Source of the DNA: a virus
Taxonomy: Duplodnaviria; Caudoviricetes
DNA: 45,820 nt
Direction: 5' to 3' (one strand)
IMG/VR virus record: IMGVR_UViG_3300033067_002195
Coordinates: 1-45,820 of that record
The first letter of the stretch is position 1; each line of letters starts with the position of its first letter. Of this stretch, positions 1 through 13,370 are shown piece by piece. Made by a program: the position numbers and the translations under genes. The notes beneath the pieces were generated by a model. It searched no databases, was not told the origin of the DNA, and saw only the letters and a program-made list of their open reading frames with translations.

Positions 1-40
1 AAAAAAACATTCAACGAACAAACAAAATATAAGTATTTAT

Positions 41-70
41 GATGTCGCACAATATGTCTTGTGCGACATC
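41..70. other. dif-like (Xer/tyrosine recombinase) site candidate
   Basis: Perfect inverted repeat gatgtcgcacaa-tatgtc-ttgtgcgacatc. The 28-bp core (42-69) has 11-6-11 geometry and its left arm resembles the E. coli XerC arm GGTGCGCATAA. Confidence 0.6.
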
Positions 71-512
71 TCTTATTTAAGCCGGTATTACACAATAAAT
101 CCTTACAAAAAACAAACATCTCCTAAACTACACACACTACAACACAAAAACAAAAATCCGTCAAATACAAAAATTCCGGTATAGCACACATTACAAATAT
201 AAAAATATATGTTTTTTTTTATTTAAATTATGACCCCTTTAGAGCAAAATTTTTTTTGGTTCAATAAATCGCTACTTTTCCGCTTAATTATGCGAAGCAA
301 GAAAATAGATTTTATGTTATAATGCTGAAAAATGACGTTTTTTTTACCATTTTCCTTGTATTTTTGTCAAGTTTTGTGTTATAATTTTTAATAGCCACAG
401 CATAGCCATAAATATCCACAGACTATGCCCACTATGCTACAACTATCACGACTTTTTTAAAAGATTTTATGGCTTATTTAAGCCCTTTATTTACTATTAT
501 GCTTTTTACATA

Positions 513-541
513 TTGACAAGTTTTTAGTTATAGTGTATTAT
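513..541 (+). promoter_or_regulatory. sigma70-type early promoter
   Basis: TTGACA (513-518), 17 bp spacer, TATTAT (536-541), upstream of ATG 569. Confidence 0.75.
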
Positions 542-568
542 TATTATATATCATTAAAAATCAAATCC

Positions 569-712
569 ATGAAAAAAATAAAAATTATTGGTTCGGTTTG
601 CAAAAACCCTAACCACAAACACATATTTGCACAGCACAATAGAATAGTAGTCAATCACTATACTAAAGGAACTAAAATAATTAGAGTTACAACTTGTAAT
701 AAAAATATTTAA
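569..712 (+). CDS. small basic hypothetical protein (47 aa)
   Basis: Hand-translated MKKIKIIGSVCKNPNHKH...; first ORF after the promoter. Confidence 0.5.
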   Translation: MKKIKIIGSVCKNPNHKHIFAQHNRIVVNHYTKGTKIIRVTTCNKNI

Positions 713-747
713 ATATATAAATATATAAATATATAAATATTTAAATT
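703..747. repeat. AT-only tandem 8-mer repeat
   Basis: aaatattt/aaatatat x5 plus a partial copy. Confidence 0.8.
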
Positions 748-756
748 CATCTATAT

Positions 757-879
757 ATGAAAATCAAAAAAAATAAATTTATTTCTTCGCTCCTTAAAGC
801 TAAAGAAATAAAGACACCTCTAAAACCATTTTTAAAAAAACTAACAGTCAAACAGTTTTTAATTCTTACATCTAAATAA
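757..879 (+). CDS. small basic hypothetical protein (40 aa)
   Basis: Hand-translated MKIKKNKFISSLLKAKEIK...; co-oriented with the early operon. Confidence 0.45.
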   Translation: MKIKKNKFISSLLKAKEIKTPLKPFLKKLTVKQFLILTSK

Positions 880-930
880 TGTCTTAATTCTTGCGGTGAA
901 TAACTGTTCACCGCTTGAACTAGCACATTA
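877..930 (+). other. long interrupted hairpin in early transcript
   Basis: taatgt..ttc..gcggtgaa-loop-ttcaccgc..gaa..acatta. Confidence 0.65.
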
Positions 931-1018
931 AAAACTAAATACCAATTACAGCCTATAACTTGGCTTTTAACTTGCGGGCTACAATTAACCCAAAAAGCTA
1001 AAGGGCAAGGAATAAAAT

Positions 1019-1198
1019 ATGAACAAACCAATCGTTAATAAAACTTTACTTAAAAAGTTAGGCTATGAAGATTATAGAGAATTTATAGTTGAGTTTGGCA
1101 ATTGGGCTTATGGTGAAAACTTTACTTACAGAGAAAAAGTTTATACTACTAGCTTTGAACGACTACTACAACATTTTATTAATTGGAAAACAGAATAA
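1019..1198 (+). CDS. hypothetical early protein (59 aa)
   Basis: Hand-translated MNKPIVNKTLLKKLGYEDYREF...; preceded by GGCAAGGA at 1004-1011. Confidence 0.7.
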   Translation: MNKPIVNKTLLKKLGYEDYREFIVEFGNWAYGENFTYREKVYTTSFERLLQHFINWKTE

Positions 1199-1202
1199 AT
1201 AT

Positions 1203-1379
1203 ATGCCAAAAAATGATTTATTTAGAGGGGATTTAACTGATGAAGATTTAGGAATTATTGAAGACGCTTTACAGCTTGAAAGAGAAATACGGATTTATGG
1301 AGACGGTAGAGAACAATATCAAGCTAAAGTAGATAAAATAATTAAAAAACTTTATTCTGTTTTTTACGAAGTTGCATAA
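1203..1379 (+). CDS. hypothetical early protein
   Basis: 3' part of ORF 1089..1379; likely start MPKNDLF immediately after the upstream stop. Confidence 0.7.
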   Translation: MPKNDLFRGDLTDEDLGIIEDALQLEREIRIYGDGREQYQAKVDKIIKKLYSVFYEVA

Positions 1380-1473
1380 TCTTTGCCCGCAAGTTTTAGG
1401 CTGTAATCACCAAAAGCTAGACGAAAGCTAAACGGCTTAATATTAATTATTCGTTTAGAGGCAAGGATTGTTT

Positions 1474-1704
1474 ATGAAATGTTTATATTGTAATAATTCT
1501 GCGGGTAAAAATCCCCACTTTCAGTCGGGCTGTTGCAAGCGTGGAATGTGCGAAGTTTGTTATAACGGCGATGTAGGCACAATGGAGCAGTTGCAAATTG
1601 ATTATGTTGATGATGAAACTTACAAAGATTTTAGTAAACAAATAGATGAAGCAGAAAAAAATGGGTTTGCTTACTTATGTTTTGACCATATGGTTAAGAA
1701 TTAA
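1474..1704 (+). CDS. Cys-rich (Zn-binding) hypothetical early protein
   Basis: CxxC, CC, CxxC, CxxH motifs; GGCAAGGA at 1460-1467 before ATG 1474. Confidence 0.75.
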   Translation: MKCLYCNNSAGKNPHFQSGCCKRGMCEVCYNGDVGTMEQLQIDYVDDETYKDFSKQIDEAEKNGFAYLCFDHMVKN

Positions 1705-1814
1705 CCCCTTGCCGTTTAGCTTTTGGTGATATTGGTAGTTAGTTTATAACCTAAATAGGTTATAAATTTTGCTCTTTAAAAATTAAATAGGTAGAGTGGC
1801 AAGGAGAAAAATAT

Positions 1815-2225
1815 ATGGAAAAAATTGTAATTTTAGATTTTAATTTAGGCAAGGTTTATATTCGCCCAGTGCCTACTAAAATGCTTGAACTTGACGCAAA
1901 TGAAATTGTGTCAAAAATGGGAAAGAAACTTGGAATAAAGGAAACTAGTTGCTACTACATGGTGGTAAATGATAATGGTGATTTTCTTGATGAGGGCAAA
2001 GAAACTGCCAACAAGCAAATAGATAATCTTATTCTTGGTGCTTGTAAAGATTGTAAACGATACAACTTAGTTAGTCTTAAAAATAATGGTTTTGATTCTA
2101 AGAACAAAGACCCGTATTATATAGCTGATTTTATAGGTAACTTAGATTATAGTAACGAAGAAAATCTAGCTTGGTATAACGGCTATATCCGTGGCTTAGA
2201 AGAAGCTAAAAGCTTAATTAAATAA
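1815..2225 (+). CDS. hypothetical early protein (136 aa)
   Basis: ORF track; GGCAAGGAG at 1798-1806. Confidence 0.8.
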   Translation: MEKIVILDFNLGKVYIRPVPTKMLELDANEIVSKMGKKLGIKETSCYYMVVNDNGDFLDEGKETANKQIDNLILGACKDCKRYNLVSLKNNGFDSKNKDPYYIADFIGNLDYSNEENLAWYNGYIRGLEEAKSLIK

Positions 2226-2411
2226 CACTCTCTCTACCTATTTAGTTTTTAGGGTGCAATAAAAGCATACCTAACTTAGATGGAAAGGGCATATAGCTTT
2301 TTCTGTTATAGGAAGCAGTTTAGTGAGCCGTTGCAACGCAACTTGGTATCGGCTTAATGTACAAGTGTAGTACACGGCTAAACTCTTTGCCAAAATAAAA
2401 TTAACGCCCTT

Positions 2412-2690: not shown

Positions 2691-4257
2691 TGAACTTGTT
2701 GGGATATTTTTTGACTATTCCCCTACCTTGGTGGCCTTGGTCAAAAGTCTACCTGGACGAGCATATGAGCCACGTTTAAAAGCGTGGCTCTTGCCCGTTG
2801 ATGGCTTGCTAAACGATAACCTAAAACGATTATCCCAGGCTGGTTTTGATGTCTCCGAAGTTGTAGGTCTTAGTACTCGTACCGAGCCAAAAACACAACC
2901 TATAAACGATTTAAATGCGTTAGTTTTGCCCAGTAACGCCACTTTAAGGCCTTTTCAGGTGCAGGGTGTAAAAAGTTTGCTTGAGGGCAATTTGCTACTT
3001 GGTGATGAGCCTGGACTAGGGAAAACTATTCAGGCTTTGACGGCTGTTCATTCAAGGAAGCTAAACAGGGTTTTGGTTTTAACTTTTGCAAGTTTAAAAT
3101 TTCAGTTTAGAGATGAGATTAAAAAATTTTTCCCCTCTTCCTCTGTTGTGGTCGTTGACGGCAATAAAAAAGAACGTACCTTGTCTTGGAAGAAAACAGC
3201 AAATTTTTATGTTGCTAATTATGAATTACTGCTTAGAGATTTAGAGCTAATGACAGAAAAAAAATGGGATGCCATTTTAGCTGATGAATGTACTAGGCTG
3301 TCTAATCCAAGAAATAAGCAGTTTAAGTGCTTGAAATTTTTGCGCTCTGATTTTAGAGTTGCCATGACGGGAACGGCTATTTCAAATTCTCCTTTAGATG
3401 TTTTTGGTATTTTTGACTGGTTAAGACCAGGTGTCTTGGGTACATATTATTCTTTTTTAGATAGGTATGTTGTTAAAAATATGTGGGGTGGTAATAAATA
3501 TTTTAAAAATCTTGAAGAGTTGGTTTTAAGAATTAAGCCGTTTTACATAAGGAGGACAAAAAAGCAGGTCTTGTTGGAATTACCTGACAAGATAAAAATT
3601 GATTTACCTGTTTTATTTTCTCCTGAAGAAGATAAACTTTATAGTCAGATAAAAGAGCAGATGTTATTGGAAATAGAAAAAAAGGATATTAGTAAAATCT
3701 TAAACCCTGTTATGCTACAAAGCAGTGTTGTTAATTTAATTAGGCTTAGACAGTTAGCAGATAGTATGGAGTTATTAGGCGAAAAAACTCAAAGTAGCAA
3801 GCTGAATGCCTTAAAAGACTTATTATCCACATTAGGCGAAAGGAAGAGGATTATTTTTTCTGAGTTCGCGCATATGTGCAAAATATTAAATAGGGAGTTG
3901 CCTGGCAGTCTTATGATTATTGGTGAAGTCAAATCGCAAGAGAGAGATGAGATTGTTAAAAAGTTTAATAGTGATTCTACTTGTCAGACATTAATAATGA
4001 GTAGTGCCGGCGCTTATGGTCTTAATTTGCAGGCGGCCGATGTTATAGTGCATTACGATTTACCTTTTTCTATTGCCAAGTATGAACAGCGATCGGCTAG
4101 AGCACACCGCATGGGGCAGAAAAATGTAGTTTATGAGTACTCCCTGGTTGTGGAAAATTCTGTTGATAAGTGGATAAAAAAGAAGCTTGAGAATAAACAG
4201 GATTTATCAGAAATGTTAATTACACTAACAGATGTTAAGGAAATATTGACTGTATGA
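2662..4257 (+). CDS. SNF2-family (SF2) helicase/translocase with HARP-like N-terminus
   Basis: DEPGLGKT, ADEC, AMTGT, GLNLQAAD, EQRSARAHRMGQ motifs; N-terminal VKSLPGRAYEPRLKAW. Confidence 0.92.
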   Translation: MTKRVKKLNNELVGIFFDYSPTLVALVKSLPGRAYEPRLKAWLLPVDGLLNDNLKRLSQAGFDVSEVVGLSTRTEPKTQPINDLNALVLPSNATLRPFQVQGVKSLLEGNLLLGDEPGLGKTIQALTAVHSRKLNRVLVLTFASLKFQFRDEIKKFFPSSSVVVVDGNKKERTLSWKKTANFYVANYELLLRDLELMTEKKWDAILADECTRLSNPRNKQFKCLKFLRSDFRVAMTGTAISNSPLDVFGIFDWLRPGVLGTYYSFLDRYVVKNMWGGNKYFKNLEELVLRIKPFYIRRTKKQVLLELPDKIKIDLPVLFSPEEDKLYSQIKEQMLLEIEKKDISKILNPVMLQSSVVNLIRLRQLADSMELLGEKTQSSKLNALKDLLSTLGERKRIIFSEFAHMCKILNRELPGSLMIIGEVKSQERDEIVKKFNSDSTCQTLIMSSAGAYGLNLQAADVIVHYDLPFSIAKYEQRSARAHRMGQKNVVYEYSLVVENSVDKWIKKKLENKQDLSEMLITLTDVKEILTV

Positions 4258-4526: not shown

Positions 4527-5510
4527 TTATTCGTACCACATTTCCACCCAAGGAGGAATAACGCCATTGTGTAGTTTTAAGTATGTTTTTTTACGCACAG
4601 ATAAGGTTACTCCTAAATAGTCGTACTTGCCTTTTACTAAGCAGTGGTATATATCGGCTTCTGTGTATTGCATTTCTGAGATGTTGGTAAATTTAACAGC
4701 CTGTACAAAAGCGTGTTTAATCTTTGGTATTAAAAGAGCGTACTTAAGGATTTTATGTATTGTTCCTATTTTTGTATAAACTCCTAGTGTCCATTTTTTT
4801 TGTTGTGTTTCTGGTAATGTTTCTCCTCTTTCTGCTAATTCTTGAATATAGCTCGATTGTTCTCTTTTTTTATAAGTTTCAAACATATAGCATACAGTTT
4901 GAGATGGGGTTTTTATTAGTTTCTCTTTGTCTATTAAACTAAACATATCCATAACTCTATACCTATAAGCATCGTCGTAGATTAAAAATATCGCAAAAAA
5001 GATAGAAATGTAATAATAAACATTTTTAGAAAATCCTAAGTTTTTTAAAAATAAATATATTATTTTTCTGGTATTACGAGCTATTGGAGAGTAAAATACT
5101 TTGTGAGGATAATGGTCAGAGAGTAGAAGGTCTAGTGCTTCTACATAATTTTCTAAAACAGTGTTTAGTATTTTAATTTTTCGTTTCCAGGGTGTTATTA
5201 AAAAACTGATTAAAATAAAAATGCTATCCTTATTTACTATTCCCATAAGTAGGGATAGGGTTATTTTTTTAGCTATGGTTATTGCCATCCCCGCGTTCGG
5301 CTCTCTCATTCCTTTTTCCGGATAAAGGTTACCAACGTAATGCAACAACCAGCCGTCTTTTTTACTTCCGCCTAAAAATTTAAAAATAGGAGAGATTACC
5401 CTATCTCTTTTAAGTGATTTTTCTGCCACACTTGATGCTTGATTGACAAACATGTTTTTATTTGGAGAAAAATATGAAGACCCTGTTCCTGTTACTGTTT
5501 CTTGTGTCAT
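4527..5510 (-). CDS. hypothetical protein (327 aa)
   Basis: Long ORF with ATGA coupling to the upstream ATPase; no motif recognised. Confidence 0.8.
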   Translation of the reverse strand: MTQETVTGTGSSYFSPNKNMFVNQASSVAEKSLKRDRVISPIFKFLGGSKKDGWLLHYVGNLYPEKGMREPNAGMAITIAKKITLSLLMGIVNKDSIFILISFLITPWKRKIKILNTVLENYVEALDLLLSDHYPHKVFYSPIARNTRKIIYLFLKNLGFSKNVYYYISIFFAIFLIYDDAYRYRVMDMFSLIDKEKLIKTPSQTVCYMFETYKKREQSSYIQELAERGETLPETQQKKWTLGVYTKIGTIHKILKYALLIPKIKHAFVQAVKFTNISEMQYTEADIYHCLVKGKYDYLGVTLSVRKKTYLKLHNGVIPPWVEMWYE

Positions 5511-6745
5511 AGTAAAAATGTTTCTTCTTCTGGGATAGTCTGGTCTATTTGCCCAGTTGTTAGTTTATCGGTTACCAAGCTACTCATATCCATGTATTCG
5601 AACTTAGTAATGATCTCCTGCCATTTTGGTAGAAGTTCCCAAGTATCACTTTTAATCCCAGTGGTAAAAGTGGCCATTTTATGTGCTTGTAAATCCCCTA
5701 TGGCTATCTTAACTGAAGTGTTATCTAATCCTATCGCTTTACCTAAATTTTTAGTTGTACCTGATCCTCCCATTCTAGTAAGGGTAGTTAGAACCTGTCT
5801 TCGATTATAAGGAATAGTATCTAGCGCCATGTTAAAAAGAGTTTTTTTGTCTTGAGGAAGAAGAGTGCTGTTTCCATAGTCGTGCTTATTTAAAACCATG
5901 AATCCATAGGCCATTGCCATTAGTTCTTTCTGAAACCTGGCTATTTGTTCTTCAAAATGAGTGGCGATTATGGGGTGGTCTTTATCAAACACCTCTCTTT
6001 CTACACTGCTTCTGGCTGTGGTGGTTAATTCGGCTAAGTCAAGAATATCTTCTTGTGTTTGTTCGTCAAAGTCTGGTAAGTCTGCCGGTTTTTCTGGAAT
6101 AATGATTCCGCTATCGTCTAAATAAGCTTTAAAAGCTGCTCTCATAACATCTTTTGCTTCAAAATCATTTAAACCGTCTTTAAAAATTCTTTTTCCCAAC
6201 TCTCTTTTTGGTGGTTGTTTAAAAATATAAGCCAATGTTCTTTCACCCATATCCGCAAATTCTGACATTTTTGTATAAAAGCTAGAAGTTGATCCTCCTA
6301 ACACCCCAATTTTCCCTTCCCAGTGCTGTGTTTCTGAAATATTGCCTGTCTTTTTGTCTAGCTCTCCATCGTAAATTTTTCGAAGCAGACCAATAATAGC
6401 TCCTCTTGCTTCTTTTTGTTTGCTTAGTATGGTTGTAAAATCTTTAAATACAAGAAAACTATTTTTTGGTATTTCAAACAATAGACTCATTTCTTGCCCT
6501 CCAGATCTTGCACCGGAAATGAAAGAGGCACTTGATACGTCGTCTAAAGATTTAAAACCCCTAACTTTTGCTAGGGAATTAAGTAACATGCTTTTTCCTC
6601 CGGAACTTGCTCCTAATAGAAAAAGCCAAGGAGGTGGGATAGGCAATCTGATACTTACCACATATGCGCATAATAACTTTACCACACCATCATCGGCTAG
6701 CAACATATACTTACTTATTATTTTATTTAGTTCTGTAAAAAGCAC
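5507..6745 (-). CDS. AAA+/P-loop ATPase, putative replicative helicase with C-terminal winged helix
   Basis: Walker A GASSGGKS, Walker B LVFKD, LRKIYDG motif, HTH-like TTKNLGKAIGLDNTSVKIAIGDL. Confidence 0.7.
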   Translation of the reverse strand: MLFTELNKIISKYMLLADDGVVKLLCAYVVSIRLPIPPPWLFLLGASSGGKSMLLNSLAKVRGFKSLDDVSSASFISGARSGGQEMSLLFEIPKNSFLVFKDFTTILSKQKEARGAIIGLLRKIYDGELDKKTGNISETQHWEGKIGVLGGSTSSFYTKMSEFADMGERTLAYIFKQPPKRELGKRIFKDGLNDFEAKDVMRAAFKAYLDDSGIIIPEKPADLPDFDEQTQEDILDLAELTTTARSSVEREVFDKDHPIIATHFEEQIARFQKELMAMAYGFMVLNKHDYGNSTLLPQDKKTLFNMALDTIPYNRRQVLTTLTRMGGSGTTKNLGKAIGLDNTSVKIAIGDLQAHKMATFTTGIKSDTWELLPKWQEIITKFEYMDMSSLVTDKLTTGQIDQTIPEEETFLL

Positions 6746-12650: not shown

Positions 12651-13370
12651 TTAAATACTTTTTAAATCTTTTAGTCTTTCTTCTACTTCTTTTTTGTCGT
12701 AAGTGATTCCGCCTATGATAATAGTTTCTTTAACCATAACGTCTATGCCAGTAATATCTTTAAACACTTCTGCATCAAAATTAGGTAAAGCTAAAAACTT
12801 CTTTCTGTTTTCCTCGTCAGTATCTCTCCAAAAGTTAGCCCAAGCTTCCTTATACTCAAATTTCTTTAAGTAACCTTTTCTTACATAAAACATTGGGTCG
12901 GCTTTCTTTTCTTCGTCTGTCATTTCATCTTCTGAAATCCATTTGGTTAAATAAAATTCTCCAAAGTGGGGGTGATTTATTTCATCCCATTTTTTATCCG
13001 TTGGTTTATTAAACATTCTAATATTCGGTTCTTCGGAATTAAAAATTCCGCTTTCTCGGTTTGTTGAGTTCCCGTAACCAGAGTTCCAGTCACCAGAGTT
13101 CCAGTCACCAGAGTTCCAGTCACCAGAGTTCCCGTAACCAGAGTTCCAGTCACCAGAGTTCCTGTAACCAGAGTTCCTGTAACCAGAGTTCCCGTAACCA
13201 GAGTTCCCGTAACCAGAGTTCCTGTTACCAGAGTTCCAGTAACCAGAGTTCCCGTAACCAGAGTTCCTGTTACCAGAGTTCCAGTCACCAGAGTTCCAGT
13301 CACCAGAGTTCCAGTCACCAGAGTTCCCGTAACCAGTATTTTCTAAGCCTGTGTTGTTTTTATTATCCAT
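12651..13370 (-). CDS. NSGxx pentapeptide-repeat protein
   Basis: 17 NSG[DNY][WRG] units followed by a globular domain ending LPNFDAEVFKDITGIDV. Confidence 0.85.
   Translation of the reverse strand: MDNKNNTGLENTGYGNSGDWNSGDWNSGDWNSGNRNSGYGNSGYWNSGNRNSGYGNSGYGNSGYRNSGYRNSGDWNSGYGNSGDWNSGDWNSGDWNSGYGNSTNRESGIFNSEEPNIRMFNKPTDKKWDEINHPHFGEFYLTKWISEDEMTDEEKKADPMFYVRKGYLKKFEYKEAWANFWRDTDEENRKKFLALPNFDAEVFKDITGIDVMVKETIIIGGITYDKKEVEERLKDLKSI
13066..13335 (-). repeat. 15-bp coding tandem repeat, 18 units
   Basis: + strand unit gagttccNgtNacca; only two positions vary. Confidence 0.95.

Follow-up and report, generated by a model that had tools for sequence, protein, structure and literature searches.

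Gene-enclosing helices in a phage early transcript: candidate RNase III stalks with a predicted Shine-Dalgarno clamp and spare pairing registers

What might pairing between the flanks of a phage gene do to its message? The question is raised by a whole phage contig of 45,820 nt (the window, analysed at its full length), whose gene products include a terminase, primase, exonuclease and SNF2 helicase. An earlier note on this DNA had read two of its units as a translational switch or closed loop, in which a complement of the Shine-Dalgarno (SD) sequence follows the stop codon and a second partner for the same arm is held in reserve. The pairings are real, beyond chance, positioned at gene borders and formed by tiled arms. 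The reading preferred here, with a probability of about one half, is that the gene-enclosing helices would serve as RNase III-type processing stalks and that the arm behind the stop would clamp the SD in units A and B, as folding models predict.

The phage, its early genes and its probable host

The minus strand carries the majority of the phage genes, while the plus strand holds an island in which a promoter is followed by four small ORFans (a1, a2, b and c) and the helicase gene; all window features described below are on the plus strand unless noted. The promoter (513..541) is a near-consensus sigma70-type site (11/12 matches in a consensus scan) and is the likely start of the early transcript. 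The ORFans a1 (1019..1198; 59 aa), a2 (1203..1379; 58 aa), b (1474..1704; 76 aa, cysteine-rich) and c (1815..2225; 136 aa) are assigned to no protein family (a1 and a2 match nothing in PHROGs or Pfam). Gene b has one relative (P0002, 87% identity), and a search for relatives of ORF c returned none. All four products are hydrophilic by sequence and do not qualify as short hydrophobic toxins. The a2 frame is open for ~37 codons 5' of its ATG (window 1086-1198), overlapping a1 in the +1 frame; a longer a2 start or a frameshift fusion with a1 is possible.

A Patescibacteria host is probable, since one bin of Saccharibacteria (39%) and one of Andersenbacteria (43%) contain relatives of the helicase; the capsid-like protein has one match (33%) across the 401 genomes searched. 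SD-like motifs are noted at about 10 of the 47 phage starts (judged by eye), and the remaining majority lack an SD; thus, covering of an SD may count for less in the host. The three GGCAAGGA starts belong to the SD-bearing minority. Their AAGGA(G) core, 6-8 nt 5' of the ATG, fits the canonical 16S tail of the putative host group, CCUCCUUU, which is present in 28/28 parsed Patescibacteria loci (30 fetched). On these loci, an altered anti-SD in this group is rejected.

Certain other features of these sequences are set down here in their own right. The left end of the window (1-900) is A+T-rich and mostly non-coding, with a strong hairpin at 41-70 and, at 412, a 9-mer resembling a DnaA box; the GC-skew changes sign near position 1000, and a replication origin within 1-900 is possible. 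On the minus strand, 12651-13370 encodes a 239-aa protein with ~17 pentapeptide repeats (G-x-x-N-S), which falls in PHROG 14105, a family of no known function. In one Saccharibacteria bin (G001), the 16S gene is matched in four pieces (L151-L154), which suggests that it has large insertions.

A predicted nested fold at the gene borders

The predicted fold spans 860-2300 and includes an outermost stem, a stem that encloses units A and B together, and units A, B and C. The outermost 5' arm (865..875) pairs with 2276-2287, with a 7-bp core (869-875:2276-2282) at pair probabilities of 0.8-1.0, and is followed by a local hairpin (877..930). The A+B stem joins 934..946 to 1731-1743. Within it, the outer 5' arm of unit A (947..962) pairs with 1390-1405 (15 bp, one U-U), and that of unit B (1406..1423) pairs with 1713-1730 (18 bp, 1 G-U). 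The unit A 3' arm (1380..1405) starts 1 nt past the a2 stop, while that of unit B (1707-1730) starts 3 nt past its stop and continues into the 3' arm of the A+B stem (together 1707..1743). Successive arms abut directly at 946|947, 1405|1406 and 1730|1731, and the A, B and A+B helices converge at a junction that has no unpaired bases. A local hairpin (1744..1765) separates B from C, the 5' arm of which (1769..1796) pairs with a 3' arm located 7 nt beyond the c stop (2232..2259) through 23 uninterrupted bp (3 G-U) plus 4 bp. The loops of the three units (helices of 15, 18 and 23+4 bp) measure 240-435 nt. Unit A also has an inner stem that joins the a1 stop/a2 start region (1184..1199) to 1351-1366 inside a2 (16 bp, 2 G-U). 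A candidate fourth stem, D (2318..2333, paired with 2799-2814 within the helicase gene; 16 bp, 5 G-U), is weaker than the A-C helices. The stretch 2255-2830, upstream of the gene at 2433-2690, is itself structured (z -3.65); it has several hairpins and competing partners for 2318-2330, and one stem extends into the helicase gene.

The finer pairings described in the earlier note are present in the sequence. GGCAAGG is found at 1004, 1460 and 1798 as claimed, with extra copies at 1848 (inside gene c) and at five sites on the minus strand. The a1 SD region (1003..1011) is paired with 1380-1388, and 1003-1010:1381-1388 comprises 7 Watson-Crick pairs and 1 G-U; the gene b SD region (1460..1466) matches 1707-1713 at 7/7 positions. 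The 5' arms of A and B are each interrupted by a side hairpin, in A at 963..998 (stem 963-968:993-998, 6/6) and in B at 1428..1458 (stem 1428-1435:1451-1458, with 7/7 matches in 1428-1434:1452-1458). A second, alternative partner for the 3' arm is provided by 969..979 in A (with 1385-1395, 11/11) and by 1424..1436 in B (with 1711-1723, 13/13). Other parts of the description hold for one unit only. That the bases after the stop complement the SD of the same gene is true of B; in A, the a1 SD pairs beyond the a2 stop, since loop A contains two ORFs (1019-1198 and 1203-1379). Similarly, the side hairpin hides the alternative partner in B, while in A this partner occupies the hairpin loop. The statement that the same design is built twice from different sequence is overstated, as the arms are paralogous; the three-way junctions are also unlike, with linkers of 0/4/1 nt in A vs 5/1/0 in B.

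The paralogy of the arms extends to copies within and beyond the units. The alternative register of A (969-979) repeats 956-967 in tandem (period 12), and 1424-1434 in B duplicates 1413-1423 (period 11); each is the inner half of an outer-arm tandem duplicate and ends at the GGC just before AAGG. A diverged B-type arm copy (978..1010) ends in the a1 SD and is complementary to 1707-1728 at 19/22 positions, with three non-wobble mismatches. The 5' arm of C also recurs at 923..941; this copy is pairable with 2239-2257 (17 Watson-Crick, 1 G-U and 1 mismatch) but is unpopulated in the folding model.

Chance does not account for this arrangement. Perfect complements of 11 nt (A) and 13 nt (B) arise in 1/5000 and 0/5000 leader shuffles, respectively. 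When upstream sequence is paired with post-stop sequence, units C, A and B take ranks 1, 2 and 3 of 70 ORF spans (z -5.2, -3.6 and -3.5), four of these spans, including the two-gene span A, having been added by hand. A helix of about -31 kcal/mol is alone within chance (genome best -32.6; minus strand -30.1 and -29.0); the signal is instead the exact flanking of three adjacent units, beyond the strength of any single helix. The strongest ungapped long-range helix of the genome (44897-44913:45568-45584; 17 bp, -32.6) has its two arms in coding sequences on opposite strands and is probably due to chance. The fold of 930-1745 gives z -4.64 and the reverse strand -4.71; thus, the z-score cannot choose the strand. 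The non-Watson-Crick positions of the core helices (A-SD, B and C) are 5 G-U and 0 A-C (expected G-U share 0.55), a bias that mildly favours sense RNA. Contigs from two sequencing runs of one study (X1 and X2) cover parts of the region with 0 differences and 0 joints; none of the runs listed as containing the phage is an RNA run. The arrangement is real and designed-looking.

Resemblance to a described RNA was sought in several forms. No match to Rfam at the gathering score is found in the window (one chance match has E 1.6), and on this basis the idea of a described family whose loops carry ORFs is rejected. A junction motif shared by A and B is rejected by their differing geometries, and no hammerhead core is recognised by eye.

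Probable processing stalks, the predicted SD clamp and the spare registers

Fold-back inhibition of the SD by the post-stop arm, raised in the earlier note, agrees with folding models for A and B and has experimental precedents elsewhere. The predicted cost of opening the SD in full-length units is 8.0 kcal/mol in A, 8.3 kcal/mol in B and 2.6 kcal/mol in C. With coding regions held single-stranded, addition of the 3' arm raises this cost from 6.3 to 9.0 kcal/mol in A and from 4.2 to 10.1 kcal/mol in B, compared to a median of 1.4 and a maximum of 7.7 kcal/mol in local folds of 36 other phage genes. A complement to the unit's own SD is present 3' of the ORF in A and B and is absent from C, in which the SD region (1798..1806) is largely unpaired (opening cost 1.9-2.6 kcal/mol). 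Before the 3' arm exists, local hairpins partly cover the A and B SDs (6-7 kcal/mol in unconstrained folds), and any early window for ribosome loading is thus blurred. Coupling of neighbouring genes through pairing of a trailer with the next SD has a probability of 0.0 in every modelled state and is rejected.

Pairing of this kind inside the cell is credible because of experiments on other bacterial messages. In Staphylococcus aureus icaR, by the account in PMC3868564, the 3' region carries an anti-SD that base-pairs with the SD on the same molecule, blocks initiation and creates a substrate for RNase III. An 8-nt anti-SD placed 467 nt downstream is reported to shorten mRNA half-life from 11.2 to 1.7 min in PMC12697547, which also describes long-range anti-SD pairing as reducing bacterial expression and as selected against in ordinary genes. 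The icaR case, as presented, concerns one gene with a long 3' UTR, whereas in the phage the partner lies 1-3 nt past the stop, the helix is 15-18 bp, the layout is repeated along the operon and a spare register is included.

The sizes of the helices are consistent with RNase III processing. Helices of 15-28 bp over loops of 240-435 nt fall within the range of Bacillus subtilis RNase III sites, for which PMC11780869 gives duplexes of 10-36 bp and cuts as far as 505 nt apart, and the enzyme is encoded in 98/101 genomes of Patescibacteria, the putative host group. Unit C also bears a likeness to rRNA processing stalks. In a matrix built from 22/30 Patescibacteria 16S leader-trailer helices, the C arm ranks 20 and its copy 36 of 91,602 positions, in the same register, whereas the A and B arms do not fit (ranks 2137 and 1641); the D arm ranks 2126. 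The label for such an rRNA leader mimic is boxA. Counting against the stalk reading, the outer helix of A has only 15 bp and a U-U mismatch.

The proposed sequence of events begins with ribosomes that would load chiefly before the 3' arm is transcribed. Once made, the 3' arm would close the SD in A and B, and host RNase III would cut the outer helix to yield gene-sized messages with paired ends. In the least certain step, shortening of the outer copy would allow the inner duplicate to take the 3' arm by branch migration, and the SD would reopen.

This last step depends on the spare registers, which the earlier note had cast as the second state of a two-conformer switch. On intact RNA, this proposal is unsupported. 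At 37 °C the alternative is disfavoured by 4.6 kcal/mol in A and 12.2 kcal/mol in B (at 15 °C, by 5.3 and 15.8 kcal/mol), its probability is 0.00 at full length, and the models argue that the registers are not an equilibrium switch. In folding models, the alternative register is dominant on truncated RNA only, in keeping with the comparison of truncated and full-length RNA that the note had suggested. Unit A flips for 9/15 staggered end pairs, from 952/1402 to 960/1394 (P 0.60-0.99), and for 3' ends at 1394-1400. Unit B flips for 5' ends at 1415-1424 (4/7 tested; P 0.78-1.0), flips weakly at 2/17 staggered double cuts (P 0.12 and 0.21), and populates the alternative at 0/6 3' truncations. In five truncated cases, opening the SD costs 3.5-4.9 kcal/mol with the spare copy available vs 9.4-12.1 kcal/mol with it masked. 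The spare copy thus has a definite predicted effect that is limited to cut RNA. A register flip upon loss of the outer copy is expected for any tandem duplicate.

A strong rival for the spare registers, at somewhat worse than even odds, is that the main helices work in processing or silencing and that the alternatives are left-overs of arm duplication, tucked away by the side hairpins. The alternative partners are halves of tandem repeats, paired purely by Watson-Crick bases, and go unpopulated on intact RNA, while other spares look decayed or unused (989-1010 against the B 3' arm, with its non-wobble mismatches, and the copy of the C arm); since all arms also align as paralogues, this explanation stays alive. 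Against it, two units share one layout with different inserts (the spare GGC precedes that of the SD by 27 and 26 nt), and both spares are still perfect even though 5 positions of the span with which they pair are unlike in the two 3' arms. Both also stop just short of the AAGG core, and so can free the SD. A cleavage-triggered register switch, built twice, is kept as a tentative extension of the preferred reading, perhaps one chance in a few: the cut would move the trailer to the spare arm, the ends would stay paired and the SD would be freed.

The outer helix may instead join stop and start in a closed loop, in which a ribosome finishing at the stop opens the arm behind it and so frees the SD of its own unit for reinitiation. 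The SD partner begins 1-3 nt past the stop, and when a stretch the size of a ribosome is masked at the stop, opening the SD costs 4.6 instead of 9.0 kcal/mol in A and 4.1 instead of 10.1 kcal/mol in B, with the next unit unaffected. To this extent, the ribosome recycling raised in the earlier note is possible; however, unit C, which has the longest helix, lacks an SD clamp, unit A contains two ORFs, and the same duplexes are plausible as RNase III targets. A literature search returned no direct precedent for closed-loop ribosome reuse, and pairing of this kind in icaR is described as reducing translation (PMC3868564). The closed loop is thus judged unlikely.

A DNA-level role, in which the repeats are recombination handles for early-gene cassettes of a PeSL-like kind and RNA pairing is a by-product, is quite unlikely. 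Direct-repeat arm copies do flank A (978-1010 and 1406-1466) and A+B (923-941 and 1771-1789), and the enclosed genes are ORFans, the sort of gene that PeSL recombination is described as shuffling (PMC2839356). By contrast, the internal mismatches are G-U, not A-C, the inverted arms are placed exactly at gene borders, and neither joints nor variant forms are seen; a scan of 860-2300 (plus strand) identified no per-unit promoter (at least 10 matches) or terminator-like site, the one strong promoter being upstream.

Control of the MS2 maturation gene is a precedent for folding delay, and was cited as such in the earlier note. A change of conformer or a delay in folding on intact RNA, driven by kinetics or a phage factor without cutting, is very unlikely here: the alternative is the best fold of A for nascent 3' ends at 1394-1400, with hairpins that cover the SD earlier and a folding order that recalls the metastable hairpins described for Helicobacter pylori aapA3 (PMC6733600), but this window amounts to ~8 nt of transcription, B populates the alternative at 0/6 nascent 3' ends against a 12.2 kcal/mol gap, and neither an antisense RNA nor a binding factor was identified.

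Relatives, known systems and biological meaning

Relatives of the locus were sought by several routes. Helicase proteins at 61-70% identity are on record (P0004-P0006 and P0011). Scans of viral contigs for the helicase and for gene b identified no locus, and a strict helicase motif gave 0 viral and 2 metagenome matches, of which one (L149) has other upstream genes without such stems and the other (L150) is too short. A search with the 18-nt arm pattern returned 2 unrelated loci, attributed to chance, and searches with architecture patterns found the design absent from 120 loci (17/64 parts covered) and from 43 loci. Among 18 distant loci (helicase 36-55% identical), z falls below -3 in 2/175 spans, neither of which is a clean stem; this test used a simpler shuffle than the 70-span test of the window and omitted L097 (no upstream DNA) and L139 (identical in sequence to L093). 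The first 80 helicase loci, L003 apart, are only 24-29% identical and were outside the analysis. An apparent gene-pair stem in L086 is really cross-pairing between two repeated hairpins.

The relatives' operon has a different RNA element, a hairpin after the stop codon, which is well supported and previously undescribed and constitutes a second RNA motif. Copies are located at 3717-3775, 4123-4191 and 5094-5160 of L083, 3558-3618 of L084, 3992-4053 of L085, 2838-2898, 3946-4015 and 4902-4962 of L086, 186-274 of L087, and 2149-2207, 2875-2937 and 3939-4005 of L098. The family has a fixed base (GCUCUUG:GAGGAGC, with one SD-like strand), bulges and an upper stem that covaries freely; two-sided changes are noted at 12/21 pairs (7 copies). 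A model trained on these 7 copies recovers 5 more in 51 sources, with 0 matches in the window, 0 in 30 rRNA loci and no counterpart in Rfam. Of the 12 hairpins, 11 begin -4 to +7 nt from a stop, and in whole records they are confined to the early region (4/5 records). One carrier (G124; 1/5 records) shares a probable capsid protein (41%), so labelled from gene order. Since these hairpins sit at the ends of early genes, the lineage appears to mark gene ends with double-stranded RNA. The relatives would use local marks and the window long-range ones; this is an analogy and does not imply conservation of the window stems.

One relative (L093, identical to L139) has a further RNA-like region. Positions 5190-5800 form a non-coding stretch of ~590 nt (fold z -6.9) that precedes a small gene and the helicase and holds several GGCAAG/CTTGCC helices; within it, 5724-5760 resembles the window B arm (E 0.025). 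Comparable sites in L084, L095 and L098 are non-coding gaps of 330-550 nt.

Double-stranded signals of either type have counterparts in known systems. In T7 1.1/1.2, the 3' end pairs with the upstream ribosome-binding site. The flanks of rRNA leader-trailer stalks pair across hundreds of bases, with a 3' arm and the next 5' arm in alternation (PMC10250234), and the long-range RNase III sites of B. subtilis similarly pair transcript flanks over such distances (PMC11780869). The arm of unit C resembles the Patescibacteria 16S stalk arm while those of A and B do not, and the phage further differs from rRNA in that its loops contain protein genes and its cleavage is predicted. T7 early genes are described as separated by RNase III sites such as R1.1 (PMC6121014), which are local hairpins like those of the relatives, in contrast to the long-range arms of the window. 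RNase III cutting is reported to free occluded ribosome-binding sites in adhE and lambda cIII (PMC5371410), and cutting may do the same here. The full-length RNAs of hok (as cited in PMC3868564) and aapA3 (PMC6733600) are silenced by a long-distance 5'-3' interaction, and the refolding of truncated RNA seen as typical of them is predicted in A by 3' trimming and in B by 5' shortening only. Unlike hok and aapA3, the phage units are inside a polycistronic transcript, encode no short hydrophobic peptides and have no antisense antitoxin among the features found.

Each ingredient of the design is already known; what is new is the tiling, SD clamp and spare register together. No paper was found that describes, for a phage early mRNA, a tiling of helices around genes together with an SD clamp and a spare register, in a search outside which lay most subscription papers and supplements. 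As anti-SD pairing is normally selected against, its construction by a phage around successive early genes suggests that the timing or dose of proteins for host takeover is set deliberately. If the cleavage-triggered switch is true, processing would excise each gene-sized message and at the same time turn it on, with stop beside start and the ends protected. The units are self-contained and easily tested, at 330-500 nt, and would supply a portable part in which translation is coupled to cutting by RNase III.
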